This document shows positions 1-14,327 of a DNA stretch of 14,327 nucleotides, one piece after another. Position numbers and translations under genes: made by a program. Source of the stretch: Candidatus Latescibacterota bacterium (GTDB lineage: Bacteria > Latescibacterota > UBA2968). Each line of letters begins with the position of its first letter. Positions within the stretch are counted from its first letter, which is position 1. The stretch is from NCBI GenBank assembly GCA_038279365.1, contig JAYODI010000113.1:1-14327 (forward strand). The letters run 5' to 3'. The notes below the pieces were generated by a model. That model had not been told where the DNA came from and did not search any database. It saw only the letters and a list, made by a program, of their open reading frames with translations.

Positions 1-1
1 G

Positions 2-538
2 GCTGTGACGGCTTTGCGTTTTAATGAGATGTTGCGTTATGAATGTGAAGGGCGCACAGAACCTGCCGAAATTTTGGATGGGCTCAATGCCTCATTGGAA
101 GATCAAATTGATTTGGCAACATTTATTACGTGTTGTGTGGTGGTGTTGGATGTGTCAACGGGTGAGGTACAAGTGGCCAATGCGGGGCATTGCCCACCCG
201 TGTTGGTAAAAGACACGGCTGAGTTGGTCGATTTGAATGGGTATCCATTGGGGTTACCTAAAATTGTACGACCCGACGAGCCATATGATACGGTTTGTTT
301 TGCCTTGTCGCCTGGTGACCGTTTGGTGTTGTATTCTGATGGTGTGGTTGAAGCACAAAACGCCCGTCATCATTTGTTTGATGATGATCGTTTTTTGCGT
401 TTGCTTGAACGAGCAGGTGCAGAAATGACATCTGAAGATCTTATTCAGAAGACTGTGACACAGGTGACATCTTTTATTGGTGATGCACCGCGTACAGATG
501 ATATAACCATGGTGGTTTTGCAACGAGAGGTTTCATGA
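2..538 (+). CDS. PP2C/SpoIIE-family serine phosphatase (RsbU-like), C-terminal part; 5' end lies outside the window
   Basis: Frame is open from the window edge. Motifs FITC, ANAGHCPP, LGL, GDRLVLYSDGVVEA and DDITMVV are typical of the SpoIIE/PP2C domain. The stop TGA overlaps the thiI ATG (ATGA, 535-538). Confidence 0.92.
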   Translation, partial: AVTALRFNEMLRYECEGRTEPAEILDGLNASLEDQIDLATFITCCVVVLDVSTGEVQVANAGHCPPVLVKDTAELVDLNGYPLGLPKIVRPDEPYDTVCFALSPGDRLVLYSDGVVEAQNARHHLFDDDRFLRLLERAGAEMTSEDLIQKTVTQVTSFIGDAPRTDDITMVVLQREVS

Positions 539-1701
539 AGAACGAAAGATTGTTTTTAATTCACTATCACGAAATTGGTTTAAAAGGAAAAAACCGTACT
601 CGCTTTGAGCAGCGCCTACAACGCAACGTTGATCGGGCATTAAAAGGTATTCCGCGTGGTTCTGTGCGGCGTATGTTTGGTCGTATGACTTTGGAGCTTA
701 CCCCCGATTCACCTGTGGATGTGATTCGAGATCGTTTGTCACATGTGTGTGGCATTGCCAATTTTGCAGAGGCTGTGACGGTTGAACGCACGATTGAATC
801 GCTGCGAGAAACGGCTTGGGCATTGGCGGAAAAAGCAAAATTTGGATCATTTCGCATTACGGCCAAACGAAGCGATAAATCGTTTTATATGAATTCGGAT
901 GAGATATGTCGTGATGTGGGTGCTTATGTTAAAGAGCGCTCGGGTGCTCAGGTGAAGATGAAAGATGCCGACTTGGAAATTTATATTGAGATTACCACGT
1001 CGCGGTTGTTTATGTATGCCGAAAAAATACCTGCTCCAGGGGGATTACCTGTTGATACGAAGGAGCGGGCGATGAGTTTGATTTCTTCGGGGATTGATTC
1101 ACCGGTGGCTTCTTATAAGTTGATGAAGCGGGGCGTTCATTTAAGTTTTGTACATTTTCACAGCCAACCTTATACCAATAAAAACTCTCAGCGCAACACA
1201 GAAGAATTGGTGCAGGTATTGAACAGATATCAGTATGTGTCGGATTTGTATTTGGTGCCGTTTGTAGAGATTCAACGACACATCATGACCGAAGCCATTG
1301 CAAGTTATCGAGTGATTCTGTATCGGCGCTGTATGGTGCGCATTGCGGCGGCTTTGGCTGAGCAGGCAAATTGTCAGGCGTTGGTGACGGGGGATAATGT
1401 GGGGCAAGTGGCATCACAAACACTGGCCAACATACGGGCCATTGAAGAGGTGACACTGATGCCTATTTTGCGGCCTTTGGCGGGTGATAATAAAGATGAG
1501 ATTATTGAGCAGGCGCGAAAGATTGGTACGTATGAATTGTCGATTGAGCCATATGAAGACTGTTGTTCGGTGTTTGTGCCCAAACACCCAGAGACACGGG
1601 CGAAGTTGGATATGGTGCATAAGATTGAATCGCGGCTTCGTTTGGATGAAATGATTGCACAAACGCTTGAGCAGGTGGAGACAAAGACCTTTAAGTTTTA
1701 A
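535..1701 (+). CDS. thiI: tRNA 4-thiouridine(8) synthase ThiI, short form without rhodanese domain, 388 aa
   Basis: N-terminal YHEIGLKGKNR, THUMP region (SFRITAKRSDK), GGLP, PP-loop ISSGIDSPVA, GQVASQTL, LRPL and EDCC. Confidence 0.96.
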   Translation: MKNERLFLIHYHEIGLKGKNRTRFEQRLQRNVDRALKGIPRGSVRRMFGRMTLELTPDSPVDVIRDRLSHVCGIANFAEAVTVERTIESLRETAWALAEKAKFGSFRITAKRSDKSFYMNSDEICRDVGAYVKERSGAQVKMKDADLEIYIEITTSRLFMYAEKIPAPGGLPVDTKERAMSLISSGIDSPVASYKLMKRGVHLSFVHFHSQPYTNKNSQRNTEELVQVLNRYQYVSDLYLVPFVEIQRHIMTEAIASYRVILYRRCMVRIAAALAEQANCQALVTGDNVGQVASQTLANIRAIEEVTLMPILRPLAGDNKDEIIEQARKIGTYELSIEPYEDCCSVFVPKHPETRAKLDMVHKIESRLRLDEMIAQTLEQVETKTFKF

Positions 1702-1792
1702 AATCAAAAGGTAGATGGCAAAAGGCAGATGAAAAAGCGGATACTGAATCATCAGGACACATATAACAAAAGTACTGTTTTTAAAAAAACCG

Positions 1793-1821
1793 TTGACTTT
1801 TCAATTTGATGCCTGTAACTT
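1793..1821 (+). promoter_or_regulatory. Putative sigma70 promoter of the leu leader/leuA transcript
   Basis: TTGACT (1793-1798), 17-bp spacer, TAACTT (1816-1821), about 40 nt upstream of the first leader ATG. Confidence 0.6.
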
Positions 1822-1859
1822 TTGGCACAGTCAACCATACATTTATCTTTGAGAAAAAA

Positions 1860-1949
1860 ATGACCATCCCTTACACACACCTTCATCTTCTCCTTCTAAG
1901 CCTACTTGGTTTGTTCCAAGAAACGGTAGTTGGAGAGGCGTGTGTATAG
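1860..1949 (+). CDS. Leucine-rich attenuator leader peptide 1, 29 aa: MTIPYTHLHLLLLSLLGLFQETVVGEACV
   Basis: Hand translation: 8 Leu within codons 8-18, two of them CTA. Followed by an intrinsic terminator and located upstream of leuA. Below the ORF-track length cutoff. Confidence 0.85.
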   Translation: MTIPYTHLHLLLLSLLGLFQETVVGEACV

Positions 1950-1969
1950 ATTTTGGTAGATTAAAACAC

Positions 1970-2007
1970 AAACCCTCGCTGCCGTTGGCAGCGGGGGTTT
2001 TTTGTTT
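1970..2007 (+). terminator. Attenuator terminator 1
   Basis: Stem AAACCCTCGCTGCC, loop GTT, GGCAGCGGGGGTTT, followed by a T run. Confidence 0.9.
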
Positions 2008-2057
2008 AAAACATACAAAACAAAAAGCAATTTCAATTAAAACAGGTTTTAAATATC

Positions 2058-2144
2058 ATGAAAAATATGCTTCTATACATCCTTCTACTTACAATCGACC
2101 TCCTACTTACAGGAGGTTCGGCAGGGGGCTTGGTGCGGCTTTAA
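2058..2144 (+). CDS. Leucine-rich attenuator leader peptide 2, 28 aa: MKNMLLYILLLTIDLLLTGGSAGGLVRL
   Basis: Hand translation: 10 Leu, in LL/LLL/LLL runs that each contain a CTA codon. Followed by a second terminator just before the leuA RBS. Confidence 0.85.
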   Translation: MKNMLLYILLLTIDLLLTGGSAGGLVRL

Positions 2145-2173
2145 CAACATGCACCATGAGCATATTTTATCCC

Positions 2174-2216
2174 ACCCGCTGCCGTATTCGTCGTCAGCGG
2201 GTTTTTATTTTTTATT
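2174..2216 (+). terminator. Attenuator terminator 2
   Basis: Stem ACCCGCTG(C)CG, loop TATTCGT, CG(T)CAGCGGGT, then TTTTATTTTTTATT. The left arm CCCGCTGCCG can alternatively pair with CGGCAGGGGG (2119-2128), a candidate antiterminator. Confidence 0.88.
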
Positions 2217-2229
2217 AAGGAGTTTAATC

Positions 2230-3771
2230 ATGTCTAACAAAATCGTTGTATTTGACACCACTTTAAGAGATGGCGAACAAGCTGCAGGCACACGTTTGGG
2301 CGCCCGTGAAAAACTCACCATTGCCCGACAGTTGGAACGTTTGCAAGTGGATGTTATTGAAGCTGGGTTTCCGGCCTCATCCCCTGAAGATGCCGCAGCA
2401 GTGGCCTTAATTGCTCAAGAAGTGCGCAACCCCATTGTTTGTGGTCTGACGCGTGCCGTTAAAGCCGATATTGATGCATGCGCCAAAGCATTGGAAAAAG
2501 CCTCTCGCCCACGTATTCACACAGGTATTGGTGTGTCGGATATTCATGTGATGGGCAAATTTGGAGACATCAAATATGGGAAAACCATTGCGGAAAAAAA
2601 GACACGCATCTTGGACATGGCCGTCAATGCCGTGCGTCATGCTCGCACCTATGTGGATGATGTTGAATTTTATGCAGAAGATGCAGGGCGTGCCGATCGG
2701 GCGTATTTGTTTGCCATGATTCAAGCCGTCATTGAAGCGGGTGCTACCGTTGTCAACATTCCCGACACCACAGGGTACACCTTGCCCGATCAATATGGTG
2801 CGCTCATTCGCAGTCTGACGGAACACGTGCCCAACATCAAACAAGCGATTATTAGTGTGCATTGTCACAACGACTTGGGTTTGGCTGTTGCCAATACCTT
2901 GTCGGGTTTGCAAAATGGTGCAGGGCAGTTTGAAGGCACGCTCAACGGCATTGGAGAACGCGCAGGCAATGCCGCATTAGAAGAAGTGGTGATGGCACTG
3001 CGCACCCGCCAAGATGCCATTGGATTGGATACAAACATCAACACAAAAGAATTTTATCGCACAAGCCGAATGGTATCAGACGCAATGGGCATGCCCGTTT
3101 CGGCAAACAAAGCCATTATTGGCGAAAACGCCTTTGCACACAGCTCGGGTATTCATGTAGATGGTGTATTAAAAGAACGCACCACTTATGAAATTATGTC
3201 ACCTGAAGATGTGGGCATGTCACACTCACAAGTGGTGCTCACCGCACGCACAGGTCGCCATGGTGTCAAACATCGCTTGGAAGAATTGGGCCACATTGTT
3301 TCAACGGAAGAACTCGAACAAATTTATCAACGGTTCTTGGTGGTTGCCGACAAAAAACGCGAAGTCTTCGACGACGACCTCATTGCCATCTTGCACGATG
3401 AAATTCGCGATCAGCCCGAAATATATCGATTAGAAGAATTTCAAATTACAACCGGCACCAGATCGATGCCCACGGCATCGGTCAAATTGTGCATCAACGA
3501 CCAAGCACATGAAGGCGCGGCCACAGGTGCTGGCCCTGTGGATGCTCTTTTTATAGCCATTGCATCGGTGGCCGACATCGCACCCAAATTGGTCGATTAT
3601 GACATTCGCTCTGTCACCAGTGGCACAGAGGCTATGGGTGAAGTTTCGGTGAAATTATCTGCAAACAATCGCCAGGTGGTTGGGCGTGGTGCGGCTACAG
3701 ATATTATAGAAGCCAGTGCCAAAGCATATTTGGATGGTTTGAACAAATTGGCACACACCATAAAAATATAA
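2230..3771 (+). CDS. leuA: 2-isopropylmalate synthase, 513 aa
   Basis: [57 protein letters not shown] and a C-terminal regulatory domain (GPVDA). Start placed at ATG 2230 behind AAGGAG (2217-2222), not at 2149. Confidence 0.96.
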
Positions 3772-3940
3772 AATTACAACCTGTAACCACTGGCAAAGTG
3801 TCTGTCATTCACCAGCACAAAGTTGCCACCACGTGATGGTGTTATCGCAAAATCAAACCGTCTCAAAGACCATTTATGTATCCAAACGATTGGTTAATTT
3901 TGTAACGACATCATCAATGATTGCAATCGCAAAGGATAAA

Positions 3941-3978
3941 ATAAAGCGTTGAATAGCATATTCAGCGCTTTTATTTTT
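3941..3978 (+). terminator. Intrinsic terminator downstream of leuA
   Basis: AAAGCGTTGAATA-GCA-TATTCAGCGCTTT then TATTTTT. One G-U pair favours the + strand. Confidence 0.8.
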
Positions 3979-3981
3979 AAA

Positions 3982-4205
3982 GTTAGATGCGTGTATAACC
4001 AAAAAAATATTCCAAATACATCTAACTTTACAAGAAAAAAATATTTAACTCACATTAAAAACAATGTTTTATGTTTGTGTTAGATGTTTGTATATTCCTA
4101 CAAAAAAAATCTAACAATAGACTTGCATGTAAATGGTTATATGCCTATATTATGGGTGTCAGTGGTAAATACGGCTATTTTTTAACGGTTAGATATTCAT
4201 CGAAC
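3982..4205. promoter_or_regulatory. Array of GTTAGAT/ATCTAAC operator-like half sites upstream of the ArsR-family gene
   Basis: GTTAGAT at 3982, 4079 and 4188; ATCTAAC at 4020 and 4109. Near-palindrome GTTAGAT-ATTC-ATCGAAC at 4188-4205. Confidence 0.65.
4123..4151 (+). promoter_or_regulatory. Putative sigma70 promoter of the ArsR-family gene
   Basis: TTGCAT (4123-4128), 17-bp spacer, TATATT (4146-4151). Confidence 0.6.
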
Positions 4206-4220
4206 AAACGGAGTAGTTAA

Positions 4221-5453
4221 ATGGCATTTGCCTTTAATACCAATTCGCAACCCCAAGACAAGTTCAAATTTGTGGTTGGTTTGCGATTTGAACTGTTTTA
4301 CGCACTCCAAACACTCACATATCACAGCACACCAACTTGTGACGATGGCAAACGCATTGGTATGCATTTGGGTTGGAAACAAAAAACGCTTCAAAAATTG
4401 CCACAGGCCTTTCATGACAATTTTAAAACCTTGGGTGGTTCACCGCATTTTTGGCCAGCAATTGCTGATGCATTGGAGTACTGCCCCATTGAAGCTTCTT
4501 TTGAAGACATCATCACCTATCTCAAAAATCTCGATCCATCCGATTTTCGAGAATCTATTTTGGTGGGCACCTTGCACGAGCAAGACATTGTTAACGATTT
4601 GATCTCGGGTGCCAAAACCTTAGCAGATGTTTCTGAAAACGCACCCGAGCAAGAACAAAAGTGGCTTGAATTTTTAGGATTAAGACCCTATCAGGCAGAT
4701 GCCGACATTGTCAAAGCTATGAACAGTCTTATCCATACGCCCGAGGCATTCAAAAACACACTCGTAGAAACGCTTCGCCTCATTTGGGATATTGAACTGG
4801 AATCTATTTGGTTGTCTGAATATCCACAACTGGTCAAATCGATAGAAGAAAAGAAACGGCTCTTTGAAACCTATACATTGCCAGAGTTTTTAGAACGTGC
4901 CTTAGACAATGACAAAACTGTTGCCATGAAAATTGATGAGGAAAATCAAACCCTTGTCTGTTGCAAAGGCCAGTTCCGAATTCCTTTTCATAAGCTGGGC
5001 AGTTTCTCGCTCATGCCGTCTATTTTTAACAGCATGAGATTCTGGACATTTTACGAATATGGTGATTATACCAACATCTTTCTCCCCTACTTTGTCTATG
5101 ACTTAACCCTTGATGGTGATGAAGAAACATCACCTGAAAACGTTGTGTCGATCTCATCCAACGGCAAACGGGTGCCCGAAATGAATCCGTCACTCATATT
5201 TAAAGCCTTAGGTGACAACACCCGATATGCCATTATTGCACACATTGCTCAAACACCGTGTACTGCAGCAGAACTTTCAAAAATATTAAAAGTATCCAAA
5301 CCCACGATTTCACATCACGTTCAATTATTGCGCGAGGCTGGGTTGTTACTTGAAGAACCTGCAGCACGATCTATTCAATTATCGCTCAAGCGCGAAGTAA
5401 TTGAACATTTGTCTCAAGCAACAGTTGGAAATCTTTTTAGCAGTGTAAATTAG
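4221..5453 (+). CDS. ArsR/SmtB-family transcriptional regulator with C-terminal winged HTH and long N-terminal domain, 410 aa
   Basis: C-terminal FKALGDNTRYAII...TAAELSKILKVSKPTISHHVQLLREAGLL is a typical ArsR HTH. RBS GGAG at 4210-4213. Confidence 0.88.
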   Translation: MAFAFNTNSQPQDKFKFVVGLRFELFYALQTLTYHSTPTCDDGKRIGMHLGWKQKTLQKLPQAFHDNFKTLGGSPHFWPAIADALEYCPIEASFEDIITYLKNLDPSDFRESILVGTLHEQDIVNDLISGAKTLADVSENAPEQEQKWLEFLGLRPYQADADIVKAMNSLIHTPEAFKNTLVETLRLIWDIELESIWLSEYPQLVKSIEEKKRLFETYTLPEFLERALDNDKTVAMKIDEENQTLVCCKGQFRIPFHKLGSFSLMPSIFNSMRFWTFYEYGDYTNIFLPYFVYDLTLDGDEETSPENVVSISSNGKRVPEMNPSLIFKALGDNTRYAIIAHIAQTPCTAAELSKILKVSKPTISHHVQLLREAGLLLEEPAARSIQLSLKREVIEHLSQATVGNLFSSVN

Positions 5454-5522
5454 CTGAAACCTGTTGCTTTTTATACAGTCTAAATTCCGGAAAACTTGTC
5501 GCTGATCAGCGCAAATGCCAAC

Positions 5523-5559
5523 AAAAAAAACCTCTGTGCGCAGGATGCACACGGAGGTT
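5523..5559 (-). terminator. Intrinsic terminator on the minus strand
   Basis: 14-bp stem with one mismatch (AACCTCCGTGTGCA-TCC-TGCGCACAGAGGTT). Plus-strand A8 at 5523-5530 gives a U tract on the minus strand only. Confidence 0.75.
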
Positions 5560-5695
5560 GATAAACCCATAGGAGGGTTTGGCTTTGCGTAATAAAAAAA
5601 TAAAATAGAGTGCCCGAACCGACTTGCAAAAGGCCTGGTAAGCAACAAGCAAGCTGGTTTCCCCGGCGCAGGGACCGTATTTAAACGGGGGCACT
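5523..5695 (-). ncRNA. Candidate small non-coding RNA of about 173 nt with a 5' four-way-junction domain; family not recognised
   Basis: Has its own promoter, and the predicted +1 falls on the first base of the closing stem. Four helices, a U-rich linker, a CCUCCU-containing hairpin and a terminator. No convincing ORF. Confidence 0.6.
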
Positions 5696-5701
5696 GCTGT
5701 T

Positions 5702-5729
5702 AATATAACAGACATGCCTCCATTTGCAA
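5702..5729 (-). promoter_or_regulatory. Putative sigma70 promoter with extended -10 driving the candidate sRNA
   Basis: Minus strand: TTGCAA (5729-5724), 16-bp spacer ending in TGT, TATATT (5707-5702). Predicted +1 near A at 5695. Confidence 0.65.
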
Positions 5730-5757
5730 AGGGTTTGTATTCTCTTGGAGGTTTAAA

Positions 5758-6435
5758 ATGTTGAAGCTTATTCAAAACGGCGCATTGTTTATGCTGTTGT
5801 TCTTGGTAGGATGTGGTTCTGGCATTACCCATTCATCGGGGTCACCCGATTTGTCAACGCTGCCTTTTACATTAACGACGGATGTGGGTGAAAATCTTGT
5901 GCATTATTTTTCACCACAGGCAACCAAACCGCCTGTTAACCGGCAGTTGCCAAACCGCATTTATCGTTTTGATTTTGTCGAGCATGAACGAACACTTTCA
6001 TCGGATGGCAATGGTGTTATTAGCGGGGCATTTTTATTTAGCATCAACAATCAGCCCGCGCAACGCGGTTTGATTGAGCTGACCTATACATCCGATGGTT
6101 CCATATGGCGCAAAACCAATAACGTTCGCATTGTGCAAACAGATATAGAAGCCATTACACTGATTGCCAATGTGCACGACAGTGAAAGTGGCTTGCCCCT
6201 ACAAAACGTGGCTGTTGAAGCACGACGCCCTGATGGAGTGCGCACATCCAGAATCGTTCGCACAGATGAATTTGGTGTGGCAACCTTAGAAGTTTTGGCT
6301 GGTGATTTTGAAATTGTGGTTGATCACCCCAATTTTCAACCCATTTCGCTGACCACCATCCGTGCAGATATGGCACAAGTAAAAATAGAAGACATTAAAC
6401 TTGCACCCATTAACAAACTGATTCGCACACCTTAA
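5758..6435 (+). CDS. Putative lipoprotein with C-terminal carboxypeptidase-regulatory-like (beta-sandwich) domain, 225 aa
   Basis: RBS GGAGGT (5747-5752); signal peptide with lipobox LVGC (Cys19). C-terminal VHDSESGLPLQNVAV...TDEFG...GDFEIVVDHPNF fits the CarboxypepD_reg-like pattern. Confidence 0.75.
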   Translation: MLKLIQNGALFMLLFLVGCGSGITHSSGSPDLSTLPFTLTTDVGENLVHYFSPQATKPPVNRQLPNRIYRFDFVEHERTLSSDGNGVISGAFLFSINNQPAQRGLIELTYTSDGSIWRKTNNVRIVQTDIEAITLIANVHDSESGLPLQNVAVEARRPDGVRTSRIVRTDEFGVATLEVLAGDFEIVVDHPNFQPISLTTIRADMAQVKIEDIKLAPINKLIRTP

Positions 6436-6505
6436 AAAAATAGCGTTCATTAGAACGCCCCGGTGGGTAGTGATTGATTGAACCCTTTCCTTCTACCCAT
6501 CCTTT

Positions 6506-6544
6506 AGAGGACGCCCGGTTGCCCGACTGGGGGTCCTCTTTTTT
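6506..6544 (+). terminator. Intrinsic terminator on the + strand
   Basis: AGAGGAC-G-CCCGGTTG...CGACTGGG-G-GTCCTCT followed by a T run. Confidence 0.75.
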
Positions 6545-6546
6545 AT

Positions 6547-6577
6547 AAAAAAAGCACACCCTTGTGGTGTGCTTTTT
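6547..6577. terminator. Bidirectional terminator between the convergent genes
   Basis: AAAAAGCACACC-CTTGT-GGTGTGCTTTTT with an A tract before and a T tract after. Confidence 0.8.
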
Positions 6578-6618
6578 GTTTGAGGCCCTGCATAATAGGT
6601 ATTCGCAATTAAAACCTT

Positions 6619-7890
6619 TTATGCACGAAAATATGAGCTGGGATTGCCGTGTGGTGGAATGCGGCTAAAGGCATCGTCATTGGCAAGCGTCATGGCAATG
6701 CCCAAAGGTGCGGCATCGGTATCGTCACAGCGCATATTAAATGTGGTGCCTCCCCACCGTGTGCCAACCACCAACACATCAAAACGCGTAAACCGTTCTT
6801 GAATGCGATCAAATGCAAGGTGACCTAAAATGTGGGGTTCAAAACCACGCTCTTCCACCAAGCAACACATCTGCCCGCGTCGATACACCGAACGCGAAGG
6901 CGGTTGAATACACCACGATCCACTTTCTTGAAGCTTACCCCCACCGTGTAGCGTCATATAAACATGATCCATATCCACATCGGTTACCAACAATTCCAGT
7001 GCCACATCTTGTGGCACATCTTTGGGCCAAGGGGGTGTTTCGCCACGCACAATGTCTAACATGTGATAACGAACCAGACGCCGATGAATGGCCTCGGGCA
7101 GTGAAAAACGATCGCCCTTTTGAACGCCCTCAGGTACAATAGATAACATCTCTTCACGTGTTAACCATACAAAGTCTTGATTGTGTGCCAAGCGTTGATA
7201 ATCGCCATCGGGGCGTGTATCAATTTTGCGGGGCAAATCGGTACAGCCCAAGTGCAACACCAGCCCATCTTCGGGATAATGCCAAACATATTTGGTATCG
7301 CGGGAAAAGTCGCCAATTTGAGACACATCTTTTTGCGTGGTGCGGTTGTCCCAATTGCTCAGTGCTTGATGGAGCATTGCAAGCAACTCATCGGGATCGG
7401 CTGTGTGACGCGAGCCCAACAACTCTCCCTCAATGGTTGCTACAAATTGCCCTTGATGACATTCACCGTGATCGGTTTGCGCCATTTTTGCAAGGGCTTC
7501 ATCAAATGAAAGCTTGAACCGGCCTTGTAATGCAATGAGGCGAAAACAGCGGCCTTCTTCGTCATCTTGTCGTTGTAAACTGTTAATATCAATCGCAGCT
7601 GTTACAAACCGTTCGTTTAACAGTTGGATAATGCGTGGGTCAGAGTATGTGCGCTCACGGCGCACAACACCATTGTTTCAGACACAGCCAACGGGGTGGC
7701 CATTCATTGCCCATAAAAAAAGCGGTTTGTTTTCTTGGGCAGATCGTTGACGGGCAGGCCAAAACTCGGTTTCCCACTGAATTTCTGTCCAACGCTCTGT
7801 TTGGGGTTTGGGCAAACATTGGGCAAATACTGCATCAAACGTATCTAATGTTACCTCTGGTGGTGGGTTTTGTATGATATCGTTGTACAT
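6619..7890 (-). CDS. Predicted selenoprotein, thioredoxin-like/SelN-like, 423 aa with Sec at codon 71 (TGA 7680-7678); joins ORF-track entries 7678..7929 and 6619..7665
   Basis: The two ORFs are in the same frame, separated only by TGA plus AAC AAT GGT GTT. Joined reading: ENKPLFLWAMNGHPVGCV-U-NNGVVRRERTYSDPRIIQLLNERFV. RBS AAGGAG precedes ATG 7890; SECIS-like hairpin lies directly downstream of the TGA. Confidence 0.85.
7644..7671 (-). promoter_or_regulatory. Bacterial SECIS-like hairpin
   Basis: mRNA GGUG-U(bulge)-UGUGCGC-CGUGA-GCGCACA-UACU: perfect 7-bp upper stem and a 5-nt loop with GU at loop positions 2-3. There are 18 nt between the UGA and the loop. Confidence 0.75.
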
Positions 7891-7912
7891 CCAATTACTC
7901 CTTTTAAGAAAA

Positions 7913-7985
7913 CTGTCGCAGGTCTGCAAGTCGCAGGTCAGAATCTTTAAGTCTTTGTTTTTTGACCTGCTGACTTGTGACTTGA
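7913..7985. repeat. REP-like palindromic element built from heptamer units (GCAGGTC / GACCTGC), copy A
   Basis: CTGTCGCAGGTCTGCAAGTCGCAGGTCA...TGACCTGCTGACTTGTGACTTG. Related copy in inverted orientation at 10210-10287. Confidence 0.75.
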
Positions 7986-7986
7986 T

Positions 7987-9009
7987 TTATTTATCTTCTA
8001 AAAGCTCTTCGGAATATGCAAACAATGCTGGTGTACCTCCTGTGTGCACAAATACAACCGTTTCATCTGGTCCAATATCCCCTTTTTGTATGAGGTCTAT
8101 TAAACCAGCCATCGTTTTTCCCGTGTAGATAGGCTCCAATAAAATGCCTTCTTTTTCGGCCATCAAACGCACAGCCGCATTGCCTTTTGCAGTACAATAC
8201 CCATATCCTTCTTCACCCACATAGGCACTGGTGTTCTCAATATCAGAAACATCAAATGACAAGTCCACACCCAAAATATCCGACATTTTGTTCAACACAC
8301 TTAAAAAAGCGGTTTGAATATCATAAGACCACACGATTGGGGCAATGCCCATAATGCGTGTGTCTATGCCCAACATTTTTTTGCCAAAAATCAAACCGGG
8401 TTGTGTACAACTTCCCGAGCATAAAATAATGGTTGTTGGTTTTTTACCCAATGCTTCACACTGTTCTAAGATCTCTGCCATACACAATGCGTATCCCATT
8501 GCACCATAAGGACGGTTGGCTTTTTGCATGACGGTGAACGGTTTGCGCCCTTCACGTGTGAGCCGGTTGACCAAAGCATCTTTGGCTTCATCTAAAAGCT
8601 CTTGTGTTTCGACATCGATCATATCTACCGAAGCACCAAACAAATCGTCTAACAAAAGATTGCCTTGTGTTGTGCCACTTTTATGATCTTTCACCATTGC
8701 CAGGGCACAATCTACACCCAGCTTGGCGGCAGCGGCTGAAAGCTGTCGACAGTGATTGGATTGAGAACCTGCCCCACCTATGAGCACATCGGCACCGCGT
8801 TCCAAGCCTTGTGCAATTGTAAACTCCAGTTGCCGTGTTTTGTTGCCACCAAAAGCCAAACCTGTGCAATCATCGCGTTTGATAAAAATTTCGGGACCAC
8901 CCAAGGCCTCGCTTAATCTTGGACAACATTCTAATGGGGTTGGCAAATGCCCCAACTTTACACGTGGTAATTTGCCAATGTGCGCACGTAAATCTAAAAT
9001 GGTCACCAC
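7987..9009 (-). CDS. D-cysteine desulfhydrase / ACC deaminase family PLP enzyme (DcyD-like), about 340 aa
   Basis: PTPLE, KRDDCTGLAFGGNKTRQLEF (PLP lysine), QSNHCR, GILLEPIYTGK, FVHTGG. Start placed at GTG 9009 behind AAGGA; GTG 9006 is also possible. Confidence 0.9.
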   Translation of the reverse strand: MVTILDLRAHIGKLPRVKLGHLPTPLECCPRLSEALGGPEIFIKRDDCTGLAFGGNKTRQLEFTIAQGLERGADVLIGGAGSQSNHCRQLSAAAAKLGVDCALAMVKDHKSGTTQGNLLLDDLFGASVDMIDVETQELLDEAKDALVNRLTREGRKPFTVMQKANRPYGAMGYALCMAEILEQCEALGKKPTTIILCSGSCTQPGLIFGKKMLGIDTRIMGIAPIVWSYDIQTAFLSVLNKMSDILGVDLSFDVSDIENTSAYVGEEGYGYCTAKGNAAVRLMAEKEGILLEPIYTGKTMAGLIDLIQKGDIGPDETVVFVHTGGTPALFAYSEELLEDK

Positions 9010-9214
9010 AAGCCATCCTTTCAATATCTATCCCAATAACACATACCGCATTTGATCACTGCATTTATGGAAAGGGAAATATGATCACATTGCAAGCAAA
9101 ATTATCTCAGGCGCAAGGGATAAAACTTGCGCCCAGGATGCCCTTTGCGTACCTATAATAGGCCTCAACATTTCTTTAAAAACGAAAATCAGCAACATAT
9201 TTCGAGGTGATCTT

Positions 9215-10192
9215 ATGCGTATTTTAATTACAGGTATTACAGGCCGTATTGGTGGCAACTTGGCTGCACAACTTATAGAACAAGGACACCAAGTGCGTGG
9301 TTTGGTGTGGCCTCAAGACCCGCGCATTGAAAAATTTAAAGATTTAGATTTGGAACTGATTGAGGGCAGTTTAACCCATTATGATGATGTAAAAAAAGTC
9401 ACCGAAGGCATGGATGTGATTTACCATTTGGGCGCGGCCTTTCAGGGTGGAGGCCCCTTTCAGGACACAGACTATTTTGACATCAATATTCGTGGCACCT
9501 TTCATATGCTCAAAGCTGCTGAGGAAAACGATAAACTTAAACAATTTATTTTTGCCAGTACCGACGCCCAATATGCCAAATATCCTTTTGAAGGCATGAA
9601 AAAACCCATCAAAGAAGATGAATTGCCCAGCGAACCCACGGGTTGGTATGCGTTGTCTAAGTCGGTGGGGGAAGAACTCTGCAATGGCTATTGGCGTACA
9701 TCTCATTTGCCCATTACCATTTTGCGCTTCAGTATGGTGGTGGGTGCAGGCGAAATTTTAGATTTTCGTCAGTTTTACTTGAGCAAAATGAAAGATCGCC
9801 CCGACTTACAAAATGTGTGGAAAGGGGAAGAACGTTTGCTCTTGCTCAAAGATATGAAAGGTCGCGCTTACAAAAAACACATTGCTGATGTGCGCGACAT
9901 TGTGCACGGCTGTATTTGTGCCTTGGGCAAAACAGAAGCCGCAGGACAAACCATTCAATTGGGTGGCCCACGCCCTTTTACTTGGGATGAAGCCATTCCT
10001 TATTTGTCTCAGCGCTTAAACATTCCTTATCAAGAAGCGATCTTACACGGCCCACCCACTTACTACGAATTTGACCTCTCCAAAGCCAAAAGCCTTATTG
10101 GCTTCAACCCCCAATATGACATCATTCGGATGATTGAAGACGCCATTGCCTACCGCGAAGGCAAAACGATCCATGTCTTACCGACAGAATAA
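9215..10192 (+). CDS. NAD-dependent epimerase/dehydratase (extended SDR), 325 aa
   Basis: ILITGITGRIG Rossmann motif, HLGA, catalytic YALSK, DVRDIV. RBS GAGGTG. Confidence 0.92.
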   Translation: MRILITGITGRIGGNLAAQLIEQGHQVRGLVWPQDPRIEKFKDLDLELIEGSLTHYDDVKKVTEGMDVIYHLGAAFQGGGPFQDTDYFDINIRGTFHMLKAAEENDKLKQFIFASTDAQYAKYPFEGMKKPIKEDELPSEPTGWYALSKSVGEELCNGYWRTSHLPITILRFSMVVGAGEILDFRQFYLSKMKDRPDLQNVWKGEERLLLLKDMKGRAYKKHIADVRDIVHGCICALGKTEAAGQTIQLGGPRPFTWDEAIPYLSQRLNIPYQEAILHGPPTYYEFDLSKAKSLIGFNPQYDIIRMIEDAIAYREGKTIHVLPTE

Positions 10193-10209
10193 AACATATA
10201 ATACCGTTA

Positions 10210-10287
10210 CAAGTCTGCAGGTCGCAAGTTGCAAGTCAAAACCTTGATCGGCTGACCTGCGACCTGAAGACCTGTGACCTGCGACAG
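10210..10287. repeat. REP-like heptamer palindromic element, copy B
   Basis: CAAGTCTGCAGGTCGCAAGTTGCAAGTCA...TGACCTGCGACCTGAAGACCTGTGACCTGCGACAG. Confidence 0.75.
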
Positions 10288-10304
10288 ATTCCAAAGGATT
10301 CCCA

Positions 10305-11069
10305 ATGCCCAATTCAACTGCTGCGTTTTGGCCTCAAGGCATCGAAGGGGCGCTCTCGCTCACCTTTGACGACAATGCGCCTTCCCAACTCAACAATGCT
10401 CTGCCGTGTTTAGACGACAACCACTTAAAAGGCACTTTCTACGTGAACCCTGGTCGTCATGAACGCTGGCAAAGTCAAATTCCACAATGGCAAATGGCCA
10501 GCAAAAATGGCCACGAAATAGGCAATCACACCACGCGTCACCCGTGTTCGTGTAACTTTGGCTTTGGCGATGGCAATTACTGTTTGGAAAAAATCTCATT
10601 GGAAGATATTGCCCACACCATTGACGAAGCCAACCAAGCTTTGGATGCATTGTTTCCAGAACAAAATGGCGACCGCAGTTTTTGTTATCCGTGTTATCAA
10701 TCTTATGTGGGCGCAGGTGTTCACCGCCAGTCTTACGTACCTGTGGTTGCCGAACGATTTAAAGTGGGGCGCGGTGGTGGTGAGCGTGCCAATCATCCGC
10801 AAAAAATAGATCTCTCTTATATTTGGTCCTTTGCGGTTGAAGGCCACTCTGGGCAAGATATGATCGGTTATGTTGAAAAAGCTGTCAAAGAAGGCTTGTG
10901 GGGTGTTATTTGTATGCACGGTGTGGGGGGCGATCATTTGGCTATTGAAACAGACGCTTTTCGCGAACTGTGTGCATACCTCCACAAAAATCGTCACCGC
11001 ATTTGGACAGATACCGTCATCAATGTGGCCAATTACATTATTGATCAACGCAAGACAAGCACGTCCTAA
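10305..11069 (+). CDS. Polysaccharide deacetylase family protein (CE4/NodB-like), 254 aa
   Basis: SLTFDD, GTFYV, GHEIGNHTTRHP, FCYP and a C-terminal MHGV. RBS AAAGGA. Confidence 0.88.
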   Translation: MPNSTAAFWPQGIEGALSLTFDDNAPSQLNNALPCLDDNHLKGTFYVNPGRHERWQSQIPQWQMASKNGHEIGNHTTRHPCSCNFGFGDGNYCLEKISLEDIAHTIDEANQALDALFPEQNGDRSFCYPCYQSYVGAGVHRQSYVPVVAERFKVGRGGGERANHPQKIDLSYIWSFAVEGHSGQDMIGYVEKAVKEGLWGVICMHGVGGDHLAIETDAFRELCAYLHKNRHRIWTDTVINVANYIIDQRKTSTS

Positions 11070-11107
11070 GAAGAGATGGCCCATCTTTTTGCACGGAGGA
11101 ACTTGTA

Positions 11108-12613
11108 ATGTCTCAGCCCAATATCTTGCTCATCATTTCTGACCAAATGGTAGCTCACCTCACGGGTGCCTACGGTCACACTGTTGTGCAAACGCCTGGC
11201 CTCAACAGCTTGGTCGAACAGGGCGTGCGCTTTGACGCGGCCTATTCCCCCTTTCCGCTGTGTTCACCTGCCCGTGCCTGTCTTATGACGGGTTCCTTTG
11301 CAGCCAACATCGGTGCTTATGACAACGCCTCCGAACTCCGCTCCGACATTCCCACTTTTACACATTACCTCACCAACGCCGGTTATGATACCGTACTTTC
11401 TGGCAAAATGCACTTTGTTGGTGCCGATCAACTCCACGGCTTCAACAGACGCCTCACCACCGACATTTATCCCGCCGATTTTCAATGGGTCAAACCCGAG
11501 TGGATCAAATTAAAAGAAGCCAAAGGCGATGGCTACGAAGACATTATGAGCACCCGTGCCACCTACCATTCTAAAAACTATGTGGGCCACACTCTCAAGA
11601 TTGGCACTTGGAATGCGCCTTTAAGTTATGATGAAGAAACCCATTTTCGGGCCTTGGAATATCTGCACGCAATGGGGCAACAAAAAGACCACAAACCTTT
11701 TCTTTTGTGTGCGTCTTACCACCACCCTCACGAACCTTTTTGGTCGCCTCAAAAATATTGGGATCAATATGAAGGTGCCGAAATAGATATTCCAGACCTG
11801 CCCGACAACTTAGATGATACCTATTCTATGATGGACAAATGGCTCAATGCCTATCACGGCACCCGACGCAACGACTTGCGAGATCGCGACGCGCTTTATA
11901 AACTGCGTCGTTCCTATTACGGCCTTGTTTCTTATATGGACAACAAGGTATCTGAACTTTTGGATAGCCTCAAAGAAAATGGGCTTCACGACAATACCAT
12001 TGTCATTTTTATATCTGATCACGGCGATATGCTTTGCGAAAAAGAAATGGTTCAAAAACGCACTTTCTATGAATGGTCTGCCCGTGTGCCTTTCATTGTT
12101 CGTTTTCCCGACGGCTACCAAGCCGGCAAAACCATTGACCAACCTGTTTCCCTCATCGACATTTTGCCCACCTTGTGTGACCTTGCCGACGTAGACGATC
12201 GCCTCCCCTGCGACGGTCAAAGCATTATGCCTCTTATTGATGGTACTGAAACCGAAAATCGCACGGTCTTCTCAGAGGCCTACGAAGCTGTTGCCGCCCC
12301 CTGTATAATGGCCAGAAAGGGCCATTATAAATACGTCCACATTCACGAACACCCGGGCCAACTCTTTGATCTGTCCACCGATCCTGGCGAATGGCATAAT
12401 CTCTTGGGGCACCCAGAAACAGCCGACATTGAAACCGATTTGCGCGCTCAAATTTTCGAAAACTTTGACCCCGCTGAAATTGCCGAAGACAACCTCGACA
12501 GCCTCTACCGCCGTCAAATGATCAACCAAGCCCAGCAAACCAATAACGTCTCGTGGGCGCACACGCCCACCTTCAACCCCAACAAAAATTCGCTCAGCCA
12601 ATACCTACCCTAA
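11108..12613 (+). CDS. betC: Formylglycine-dependent sulfatase, choline-sulfatase (BetC)-like, 501 aa
   Basis: PNILLIISDQ and the CSPAR signature. YDNA...LSGKMHFVGADQLHGF..RLTTDIYPADF closely matches my recollection of BetC. SDHGDM present. The substrate is inferred. Confidence 0.8.
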   Translation: MSQPNILLIISDQMVAHLTGAYGHTVVQTPGLNSLVEQGVRFDAAYSPFPLCSPARACLMTGSFAANIGAYDNASELRSDIPTFTHYLTNAGYDTVLSGKMHFVGADQLHGFNRRLTTDIYPADFQWVKPEWIKLKEAKGDGYEDIMSTRATYHSKNYVGHTLKIGTWNAPLSYDEETHFRALEYLHAMGQQKDHKPFLLCASYHHPHEPFWSPQKYWDQYEGAEIDIPDLPDNLDDTYSMMDKWLNAYHGTRRNDLRDRDALYKLRRSYYGLVSYMDNKVSELLDSLKENGLHDNTIVIFISDHGDMLCEKEMVQKRTFYEWSARVPFIVRFPDGYQAGKTIDQPVSLIDILPTLCDLADVDDRLPCDGQSIMPLIDGTETENRTVFSEAYEAVAAPCIMARKGHYKYVHIHEHPGQLFDLSTDPGEWHNLLGHPETADIETDLRAQIFENFDPAEIAEDNLDSLYRRQMINQAQQTNNVSWAHTPTFNPNKNSLSQYLP

Positions 12614-12648
12614 TCCTATTGCAATCTTCTTCGCCAAGGGCCACCCTC

Positions 12649-12815
12649 GCACAGCGCATGATCCCACTGGCATAGTTGTCACAAAACCACCCCATCTCGT
12701 AGGCCACTGAACCCATTGAACCCACAAACGAGATTTGCGCTGTGCAGCCCCCCGGCACTTGAGGGGCGACTTTTTGCCTACTTTTTTGTTGCTTAAAAAG
12801 TAGGCCGCCGGAGGC
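12649..12815. repeat. Structured intergenic element, probably a dispersed repeat (MITE/REP-like)
   Basis: Stems GCACAGCGCA/TGCGCTGTGC (12649-12658/12736-12745), ATCTCGT/ACGAGAT (12694-12700/12728-12734) and GCCTACTTTTT/AAAAAGTAGGC (12776-12786/12795-12805). Confidence 0.55.
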
Positions 12816-12892
12816 CACAAAACAAAACGTAAAACCGGTTTTCATTCACCCAACAAACCACAATACCCATCCGATTAAGAAAGCGACCCCAA

Positions 12893-14200
12893 ATGCCCAA
12901 CCAACCCAACATCCTCTTCCTCTTCCCCGACCAACTCAGATTCGATTGGATCTCCGGCAACCCTCAAATCCCGGTTCGCACGCCCCACCTCGACCGCCTT
13001 CGTGCCCAAGGCACCACCTTTGCCAAAGCCGTTACCCCCTCTCCTTTGTGCGCCCCTTGCCGAGCCGCCCTTGCCCTGGGCGTTGAATATCACCACAGCC
13101 CTGTTCAAGGCAACGGCGAAAATGTGCCTCTAAACGCACCGACCTTCTACAAGCATTTACGCGATTCTGGGTACCACGTGATGGGGTGTGGCAAATTTGA
13201 TTTGAACAAGGGCGACTGCATTTCTCGCAAACCCGCCTGGGGGCTTGATGGCAAAAAGAATTTACACGCGTGGGGTTTTTCTGATGGCATCAACAATGAA
13301 GGCAAAATGGACGGTGCAAACAGTGGCAAAGAAAAACCGCAAGGCCCCTACCTCCAGTTTTTGGAAGAACGGGGGCTCCGTCAGGTTCATATCGACGACT
13401 TTGCGGCGCGCAACAAAACATCGTCATTTGCTACGCCACTTCCCGACGACGCCTACTGCGACAACTGGATTGGGCAAAACGGATTGGATCTGATTGATTC
13501 CGTTCCCCCAAACAAGCCGTGGTTTCTCCAGGTGAATTACAATGGTCCTCATAACCCGTGGGATATTACCGAATCTATGAAAGCGCTCTACAAAGACGCA
13601 CCATTTCCTGCCCCCAATGCAACCGATGACATCGACCCCGAGGTGCACCAAGACGTGCGCCGAAACTACGCCGCAATGGTCGAAAACATTGATCGTTGGA
13701 CGGGGAAGTTTTTAGACAAGCTCACCGAACGTGGCGAACTTGAAAACACCCTCATTGTCTTTTCTTCGGATCACGGTGAAATGCTTGGCGATCAAAATTT
13801 GTGGGGCAAAACCCAACCCTATCACCCTTCCGTCAGCGTGCCCTTGGTTATTGCGGGGCCACAGGTAAAACACGCGACAACAAATGTGCCCACCACCATT
13901 CTCGACCTACCCGCCACCTTTTTGGATTACGCCAATGTGCCCATTCCTCCAGAAATGGACAGCCGTTCTTTGCGCTCTTTCTTGGAAGGTCAAACGACTG
14001 CCCATCGCAAAGTTGTTACGTCCAGCCTTCGCAACTGGCAAATGGTTTATGACGGGCGTTTTAAATATGTTGAAGGCTTTATCGACACCCCTCAGTTTTT
14101 CGATCTTGAAAGTGACTCGCTCGAAAACAACAACCTCATTACCCACCCCAATGCGGTCGAACAAATTGCACGATTAAAAGCACAACTGCCAAATCCATAA
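12893..14200 (+). CDS. Formylglycine-dependent sulfatase family protein, 435 aa, substrate unknown
   Basis: PNILFLFPDQ, RTPHLDRL, CAPCR signature (CxPxR), GPHNP, ENTLIVFSSDHGEMLG. No signal peptide. Confidence 0.9.
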   Translation: MPNQPNILFLFPDQLRFDWISGNPQIPVRTPHLDRLRAQGTTFAKAVTPSPLCAPCRAALALGVEYHHSPVQGNGENVPLNAPTFYKHLRDSGYHVMGCGKFDLNKGDCISRKPAWGLDGKKNLHAWGFSDGINNEGKMDGANSGKEKPQGPYLQFLEERGLRQVHIDDFAARNKTSSFATPLPDDAYCDNWIGQNGLDLIDSVPPNKPWFLQVNYNGPHNPWDITESMKALYKDAPFPAPNATDDIDPEVHQDVRRNYAAMVENIDRWTGKFLDKLTERGELENTLIVFSSDHGEMLGDQNLWGKTQPYHPSVSVPLVIAGPQVKHATTNVPTTILDLPATFLDYANVPIPPEMDSRSLRSFLEGQTTAHRKVVTSSLRNWQMVYDGRFKYVEGFIDTPQFFDLESDSLENNNLITHPNAVEQIARLKAQLPNP

Positions 14201-14233
14201 ACTTTTGTTTCTGAAGACAAAAAAAATTTATAC

Positions 14234-14262
14234 AAAAAAAATCCTTTATTAAAAGGATTTTT
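14234..14262. terminator. AT-rich hairpin after the second sulfatase, possible terminator
   Basis: AAAAATCCTTT-ATTA-AAAGGATTTTT; weak stem. Confidence 0.5.
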
Positions 14263-14327
14263 CATATTTACATACTAAGTAATACAATATAAAATTTAAA
14301 CGAGATCCAATCCATGACCACTCACCA

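Follow-up and report, generated by a model that had tools for sequence, protein, structure and literature searches.

A Probable Bacterial Selenocysteine Insertion Element within a Predicted Selenoprotein Gene of a Latescibacterota Bacterium

A stretch of DNA of 14,327 nucleotides from an uncultured bacterium, Candidatus Latescibacterota (GenBank assembly GCA_038279365.1, contig JAYODI010000113.1, positions 1 to 14,327), analysed here at its full length and called the window below, carries on its minus strand a small RNA hairpin directly after an in-frame UGA codon. In our opinion, this hairpin is most probably a functional-looking selenocysteine insertion sequence (SECIS) of the general bacterial type (bSECIS), situated inside a selenoprotein gene; judging from the comparison of related sequences, the probability of this reading can be put at about 0.88. 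Such an element would allow the UGA to be decoded as selenocysteine (Sec). The mechanism itself is not new, because the hairpin is of the textbook type of bacterial SECIS. At the same time, the finding points to the use of Sec in Latescibacterota-type bacteria, on which a limited literature search gave nothing relevant, and provides a clean example, obtained by experiment-free means, of an RNA structure written over a coding sequence.

The Hairpin and the Read-Through Gene

In the order of the minus strand, the UGA is followed by AACAAU (7677-7672), GGUG, one unpaired U (7667), the 5' arm UGUGCGC, the loop CGUGA, the 3' arm GCGCACA and UACU; the remaining coordinates are collected in Table 1. 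The hairpin had been pointed out earlier from the letters of the DNA only (the sequence-only reading), and its letters and coordinates, as well as the spacing of 18 nt between the UGA and the loop, proved to be exact on this strand. Folding with RNAfold, which had been proposed there as a check, gave the hairpin as the minimum free energy (MFE) or centroid structure with an energy of -13.8 kcal/mol. Two registers of this fold are isoenergetic, the unpaired U being nt 7667 in one of them and nt 7666 in the other.

Under translation table 11, two open reading frames (ORFs) are found on the minus strand, 7929-7678 and 7665-6619, which belong to one frame and are split by the TGA, and read-through joins them into a gene of 423 codons. 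A start upstream of the TGA is favoured over the GTG at 7665 that is used in public annotation, because AAGGAG precedes ATG 7890. The local protein motif around codon 71 is W-A-M-N-G-H-P-V-G-C-V-U-N-N-G, where U is the putative Sec. The N-terminal domain, which includes G-C-V-U-N-N-G, is thioredoxin-like, and the C-terminal domain is rich in beta-structure and has no known relative.

Table 1. Positions of the hairpin, its parts and the associated gene signals in the window
Feature	Position	Strand	Details
SECIS core (putative)	7666-7648	minus	7 bp, arms 7666-7660 and 7654-7648; nt 15-33, the U of UGA being nt 1
Apical loop, 5 nt, CGUGA	7659-7655	minus	CGUGC in 7/11 sequences; G23/U24 the presumed SelB contact
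Weak lower stem enclosing the core	7671-7644	minus	GGUG 7671-7668 with UACU 7647-7644, mostly G-U
Predicted selenoprotein gene	7890-6619	minus	423 codons; ATG 7890-7888, Sec-UGA at codon 71, TAA 6621-6619
In-frame UGA, codon 71, putative Sec	7680-7678	minus	same column in 11/11; Cys in 7/20 homologues
Shine-Dalgarno-like AAGGAG	7898-7903	minus	7 nt 5' of ATG 7890

Conservation and Covariation across Related Loci

A scan of one genome per species gave 10 related loci, the best tblastn segments of which are 48-86% identical; by their titles, seven of them come from metagenome-assembled genomes of Latescibacterota or Latescibacteria, one from Gemmatimonas and two from unclassified bacteria. Two of these loci, L006 and L008, lie on complete chromosomes (OZ252228.1 and OZ244937.1, respectively). 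Together with the window they form a set of 11 sequences. Each of the 10 loci contains a single in-frame stop, which is a TGA and stands in the same column as that of the window. The reading frame is conserved on both sides of this codon in all 11 sequences, with invariant flanks W-A-M-N-G-H-P-x-G-C-V before it and N-N-G-V after it. The alignment of 78 nt around the TGA is free of indels, and the distance from the UGA to the loop is 18 nt throughout.

When the 11 sequences were submitted to RNAalifold, exactly the upper stem of 7 bp was recovered, and four of its seven pairs showed compensatory changes, which is the kind of change that the sequence-only reading had suggested looking for in TGA-bearing homologues. 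This stem is paired in 74 of 77 cells of the alignment. In the MFE folds of 40 nt, the core is present in 11 of 11 sequences as a helix of 6-7 bp with the loop CGUG(A/C), and the upper stem and the small loop with G at its second position, as described earlier for the window, are in this sense kept in the whole set; the energies of the other 10 sequences range from -9.6 to -15.7 kcal/mol. No variation is seen at the bases C22, G23, U24 and G25 (nt 1 being the U of UGA).

For the full structure of 11 pairs, which includes the lower stem, the share of paired cells among 121 is 95.0%, compared with 82.4% in shuffled alignments, and the covariation score is 0.380 against 0.168; neither value was reached in any of 500 shuffles. 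Five pairs of the full structure are changed on both sides (a count reached by 19 of the 500 shuffles), and the number of further pair types is unremarkable (355 of 500). As a control, the 3' partners were slid by 1-3 columns, which left 29.8-71.9% of cells paired. Taken by comparison, these data argue strongly that the hairpin lies far beyond chance.

Selection on the RNA Apart from the Protein

The stem-loop is written over codons 75-81, which encode V-V-R-R-E-R-T in the window and V-V-G-R-A-L-T in the other clade. The stem is closed by a pair between the third positions of Val75 and Thr81, both of which are synonymous sites; among the 11 sequences this pair is U-A in three, G-C in three and C-G in two, and is unpaired in three. 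The window and its closest relative (locus L001) differ by a double change of exactly this kind. The five codons between, 76-80, show zero synonymous variation in every amino-acid class, and Arg78 is CGT in 11 of 11 sequences despite the existence of six arginine codons. Of the 377 informative codon columns of the gene, 20 are free of synonymous variation; outside codons 76-80 such columns stand singly, and a run of five of them was reached in 2 of 20000 permutations. The two replacements between the clades, namely Arg to Gly at codon 77 (CGC to GGC) and Arg to Leu at codon 80 (CGC to CTC), leave the bases paired, with G-U in place of C-G. The covarying synonymous sites, the constraint on codons 76-80 and these pair-preserving replacements together indicate, therefore, that selection acts on the RNA structure itself. 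The proposal made from the sequence was that the hairpin speaks for Sec decoding without reliance on the protein motif, and this is now sustained by the covarying synonymous sites, the local synonymous constraint, the invariance of the UGA and the loop, and the fit to the bSECIS consensus described below.

Covariation reveals that a structure is selected but not what it does, and the hairpin might be kept for another role, such as mRNA stability, a binding site for a protein or RNA, or a feature of the plus strand, where the ORFs 7514-7750 and 7635-7877 overlap the site. An overlapping gene would, however, constrain a longer stretch than the five codons that coincide with the stem-loop, and the structure always begins 11 nt past the conserved in-frame UGA and bears the consensus G-U in its loop. 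Moreover, a covariance model of the 40-nt element, run with filters off over the window and the 10 loci (72,405 nt), returned only its own 11 training sites; the next best match had E = 0.68, and no second SECIS of this type or further copy was found there. Another role of this sort is, in our view, very unlikely.

Relation to Known SECIS Elements

According to the passages on bSECIS elements in a recent review (PMC13188914), such elements have a stem of 4-16 bp capped by a loop of 3-9 nt, a distance of 16-37 nt from the UGA to the loop and an energy of -7.5 kcal/mol or lower, and a G stands among the first two positions of the loop, usually followed by G or U. The hairpin of the window falls within all of these limits, as far as they are set out in those passages, having a loop of 5 nt, a stem of 7 bp, G-U at loop positions 2-3, a spacing of 18 nt and an energy of -10.4 kcal/mol for the core or -13.8 kcal/mol with the lower stem. 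Like other bSECIS elements, it lies within the coding region, on the same strand and in the same ORF, directly after the Sec-UGA, and differs from them in no defining feature of geometry. Its particular traits are a primary sequence specific to this gene family and a lower stem that is weak and shifts in register.

The element of Escherichia coli fdhF, in the parts of PMC8659212 that describe it, is a minihelix of 17 nt (nt 15-31) located 11 nt from the UGA, with a bulged U17 and with G23/U24 in the loop, and its contacts with SelB are U17 and G23. The hairpin studied here resembles this description in that its helix starts at nt 15, 11 nt past the UGA, and G23/U24 are in the loop. It is different in having a perfect stem of 7 bp (nt 15-33) with a loop of 5 nt and no internal bulge. 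Its sole unpaired U is nt 14 (or nt 15 in the alternative register) and is not conserved as a bulge. The parallel with fdhF that had been drawn earlier for the bulged U does not hold, since this U, nt 14, lies just below an uninterrupted helix of 7 bp and is not a U17 inside a minihelix. As to the 5' bulged U itself, an unpaired U is indeed present in the fold of the window, but a one-base 5' bulge occurs in only 2 of the 11 folds of 40 nt. Conservation of this base is uninformative, because it occupies the middle position of an invariant Val codon. The element should be assigned to the general bSECIS class and not to the fdhF subtype.

The lower stem is paired in 41 of 44 cells, mostly by G-U, and its pair 24-47 appears as U-A, G-U or A-U. 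It was not predicted by RNAalifold from the 11 sequences, and its register differs between clades. An alternative register, in which columns 21-25 pair with columns 48-52, suits one clade only, the pairs 22-51 and 24-49 being broken in 5 of the 11 sequences, and was rejected. Neither register is firmly supported.

If the hairpin acts as a bSECIS, a ribosome arriving at the UGA of codon 71 would meet, 11 nt downstream, the beginning of the 7-bp stem with its loop C-G-U-G-A. SelB carrying Sec-tRNA(Sec), both presumably provided by sel genes of the host, would bind the loop through G23/U24, and Sec would be delivered to the A site in place of a release factor. The expected product is a single protein of 423 residues with a C-x-U motif at the active site of a thioredoxin fold, where C69-x-U71 may form a selenenylsulfide redox centre.

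Points against a bSECIS

Several results weigh against the interpretation of the hairpin as a bSECIS or narrow its basis. In RNAfold, the window sequence gave z = -0.80 over 60 nt, 42 of 200 shuffles being as stable, and z-scores for 40 nt over the 11 sequences extended from +0.36 to -2.49, which means weak stability; for the window sequence itself the 40-nt value was -1.95, with 8 of 200 shuffles as stable. The stability of the single sequence alone is unconvincing and was not used as evidence. A simplified consensus scan of our own, which considered all TGA trinucleotides of the window in any frame on both strands and allowed only contiguous stems, found a qualifying hairpin after 18 of 527 TGAs, the consensus being permissive, and the target hairpin with its 19-nt core of -10.4 kcal/mol ranked ninth. 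Judged by this single sequence, the hairpin stands out only modestly. No Rfam family reached its gathering score within the window, and a permissive Rfam scan of 7500-7800 gave nothing at the hairpin. The sole match of the permissive scan (E <= 10), at 7526-7595, was to an unrelated small nucleolar RNA model and was discarded.

The comparative data have their own bounds. The 11 sequences are few and related, representing two or three clades; the shuffles do not preserve this relatedness, and some compensatory cells are of single origin, as is the change from C-G to G-U in pair 31-41. The window contains no tRNA gene, tRNA-Sec included, and a Pfam scan of 10 genes neighbouring the predicted selenoprotein gene gave no match to a family of the Sec pathway.

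Homologues and Public Annotation

The near relatives of the read-through protein in a protein collection clustered at 90% number 87, and all of them cover at most 83% of it; the names given to them are exclusively "hypothetical protein". An exhaustive HMMER search gave 1449 representative clusters at E <= 0.001. In a comparison of 235 homologues, 131 begin within approximately 30 residues after the Sec column, 20 span this column and 84 are other fragments. The 131 starts just after the Sec column are as expected if gene callers stop at a TGA.

Public gene calls place the start at a GTG or ATG just past the TGA (P0002-P0030 and others); in the window it is GTG 7665, inside the SECIS stem. Database entries of about 347 residues would thus represent shortened selenoproteins that have lost the N-terminal 70 residues together with Sec.

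In the 20 spanning homologues, which have no stop at this site, the Sec column is occupied by Cys in seven, five of which have it as C-x-C (P0113, P0114, P0169, P0200 and P0234); the remaining 13 have D, A, S, R, G, N or Y there. The presence of Cys in 7 of the 20 means that a classical Sec/Cys pair exists in this family. Residues 75-81 are highly variable in these 20 proteins, with the exception of R78.

The two-domain module of this protein, thioredoxin-like and beta-rich, is also carried C-terminally by FecR-type anti-sigma factors and by Ser/Thr protein kinases, among which one has Kelch repeats. The fused forms are P0090, P0107, P0113, P0179 and P0168, P0199, P0227; six of these seven lack Cys at the Sec column, the exception being the kinase fusion P0113 with C-T-C. 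Such an arrangement suggests that the module may serve as a sensor in the kinase and anti-sigma fusions.

Protein Fold and the Meaning of the UGA

A model was obtained with AlphaFold2 from an alignment of 111 sequences, with a predicted local distance difference test (pLDDT) value of 94.7 and a predicted template modelling score (pTM) of 0.92; it replaced an earlier, poor model made from 11 sequences (pLDDT 65.6). In the model, the strand 57-62 is followed by Sec71 and the helix 72-80, and this order corresponds to the active-site position of the thioredoxin fold. A Foldseek search against the PDB found thioredoxin-fold domains, 3f9u (E 1.6e-3, target TM 0.64), 7tkv, 3ira, AGR2 and the UAS domain 2dlx, and nothing convincing for the C-terminal beta-rich domain of about 220 residues. 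A profile search of the PDB, in which only weak matches to thioredoxin folds were obtained, aligned the Sec column with 3ira at the first Cys of its CxxC (E = 0.017).

These structural data, along with the homologues, bear on the question of whether the UGA is a true stop. In that case the locus would hold either two genes, for a peptide of 70 residues and a protein of 348 residues starting at GTG 7665, or a pseudogene, and the hairpin would either be there by accident or have a part in termination-reinitiation. The public gene calls agree with a stop, as do the incomplete coverage in 87 of 87 relatives and the 131 of 235 homologues that begin just after it, and the GTG lies inside the stem, 5 codons past the UGA. 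A stop would, however, cut one confidently modelled thioredoxin-fold domain between its strand 57-62 and its helix 72-80, while the 70 codons upstream are in frame and conserved in 11 of 11 sequences and have AAGGAG in front of their ATG, and in each of the 20 homologues that have no stop one polypeptide runs through the site. A pseudogene would not hold one TGA in one column down to 48% identity. A true stop is thus highly improbable.

The genetic code of the window was judged from its other genes. The SpoIIE-domain gene ends with the TGA at 538, three residues past its Pfam match, and is the only one of the window's 11 genes with this stop, eight other genes ending with TAA and one with TAG; no internal TGA was found in any other gene of the window. 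Since TGA terminates the SpoIIE-domain gene, the code is regarded as standard. The same stop overlaps the ATG of the ThiI gene (ATGA, 535-538, plus strand). That the UGA is read as a standard amino acid, through a code reassigned to Trp or Gly or through near-cognate read-through during which the hairpin merely slows the ribosome, is extremely improbable: TGA is rare as a stop (1 of 10 other genes of the window) and downstream hairpins stimulate read-through in other systems, but TGA does terminate the SpoIIE-domain gene and is absent from the interior of other genes, the homologues have Cys in 7, Gly in 1 and Trp in none of 20 at this column, and the G-U of the loop together with its spacing is specific to elements of the SelB type.

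Family Relationships of the Predicted Selenoprotein

The predicted selenoprotein belongs to no Pfam or NCBIfam family model. Pfam gave only a sub-threshold match to Thioredox_DsbH / DUF255 (PF03190) at residues 37-103 (15.1 bits against a cut-off of 27, E = 0.024), and no NCBIfam family matches the read-through protein. It resembles the CxxU, UxxC and CxU thioredoxin-fold selenoproteins described in passages of PMC13188914 in that the putative Sec is at the N-terminus of helix 1, a Cys is nearby (C69-x-U71) and Cys homologues exist. Unlike in the CxxC arrangement, the partner Cys is upstream here, with a spacer of one residue; unlike the thioredoxin-fold selenoproteins tabulated in that review, this protein is fused to a beta-rich domain and has no Pfam or NCBIfam model. 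The passages that term searches retrieved from the table of prokaryotic selenoprotein families in the same review, published in 2026, have no entry for DUF255, PF03190, DsbH or PF13899, and for this reason the CxU thioredoxin-like selenoprotein family is regarded as probably undescribed. Nothing on this CxU family was found in PMC8318568 and PMC4807772.

A search by language-model features with the Cys homologue P0234 placed a cluster of eukaryotic "Selenoprotein N" first (0.91, 196 of 256 features); being alignment-free, this result is a lead only. Two profile searches, the reach of which was limited by a word index, gave no named selenoprotein N and returned hypothetical proteins only, and literature searches turned up no prokaryotic counterpart of selenoprotein N. 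According to a part of PMC12839072, the Sec of selenoprotein N (SELENON) is residue 458 and belongs to an SCUG motif within a thioredoxin-like region. The predicted protein shares with SELENON a putative Sec near a Cys in a thioredoxin-like domain, and the Foldseek match to the UAS domain 2dlx is a further similarity. The differences, so far as that description goes, are C-x-U here versus C-U there and a Sec near the N-terminus here versus residue 458 there. A broader reading, in which the gene belongs to a widespread undescribed selenoprotein family and its Sec domain is akin, on the bacterial side, to the catalytic region of selenoprotein N of eukaryotes, is as a whole rather unlikely.

Genomic Neighbourhood and Other Features of the Window

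A gene of a PALP enzyme and a gene of an ArsR-type regulator flank the predicted selenoprotein gene in the window as well as in L002, a close locus, and the neighbours are different in the loci L005 and L006. On the plus strand, 4221-5453 encodes a protein of 410 residues, the only Pfam matches of which are helix-turn-helix domains of the ArsR/MarR type at residues 330-377; nothing matches its first approximately 330 residues. This gene keeps its place beside the predicted selenoprotein gene in L002, but not in L005 or L006.

The window-wide consensus scan at TGAs also brought to light three other hairpins on the plus strand. The first of them (3943-3971), with a perfect stem of 13 bp and a loop of 3 nt, is located about 170 nt past a LeuA/homocitrate-synthase-like gene (2149-3771) and looks like a terminator. 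The second (12776-12805), with 11 bp and a loop of 8 nt, lies between the sulfatase genes 11108-12613 and 12893-14200 and is probably a terminator too. The third is a GC-rich hairpin of 8 bp (9110-9133) in the divergent intergenic region between a PALP-family gene (9024-7987, minus strand) and an epimerase gene (9215-10192).

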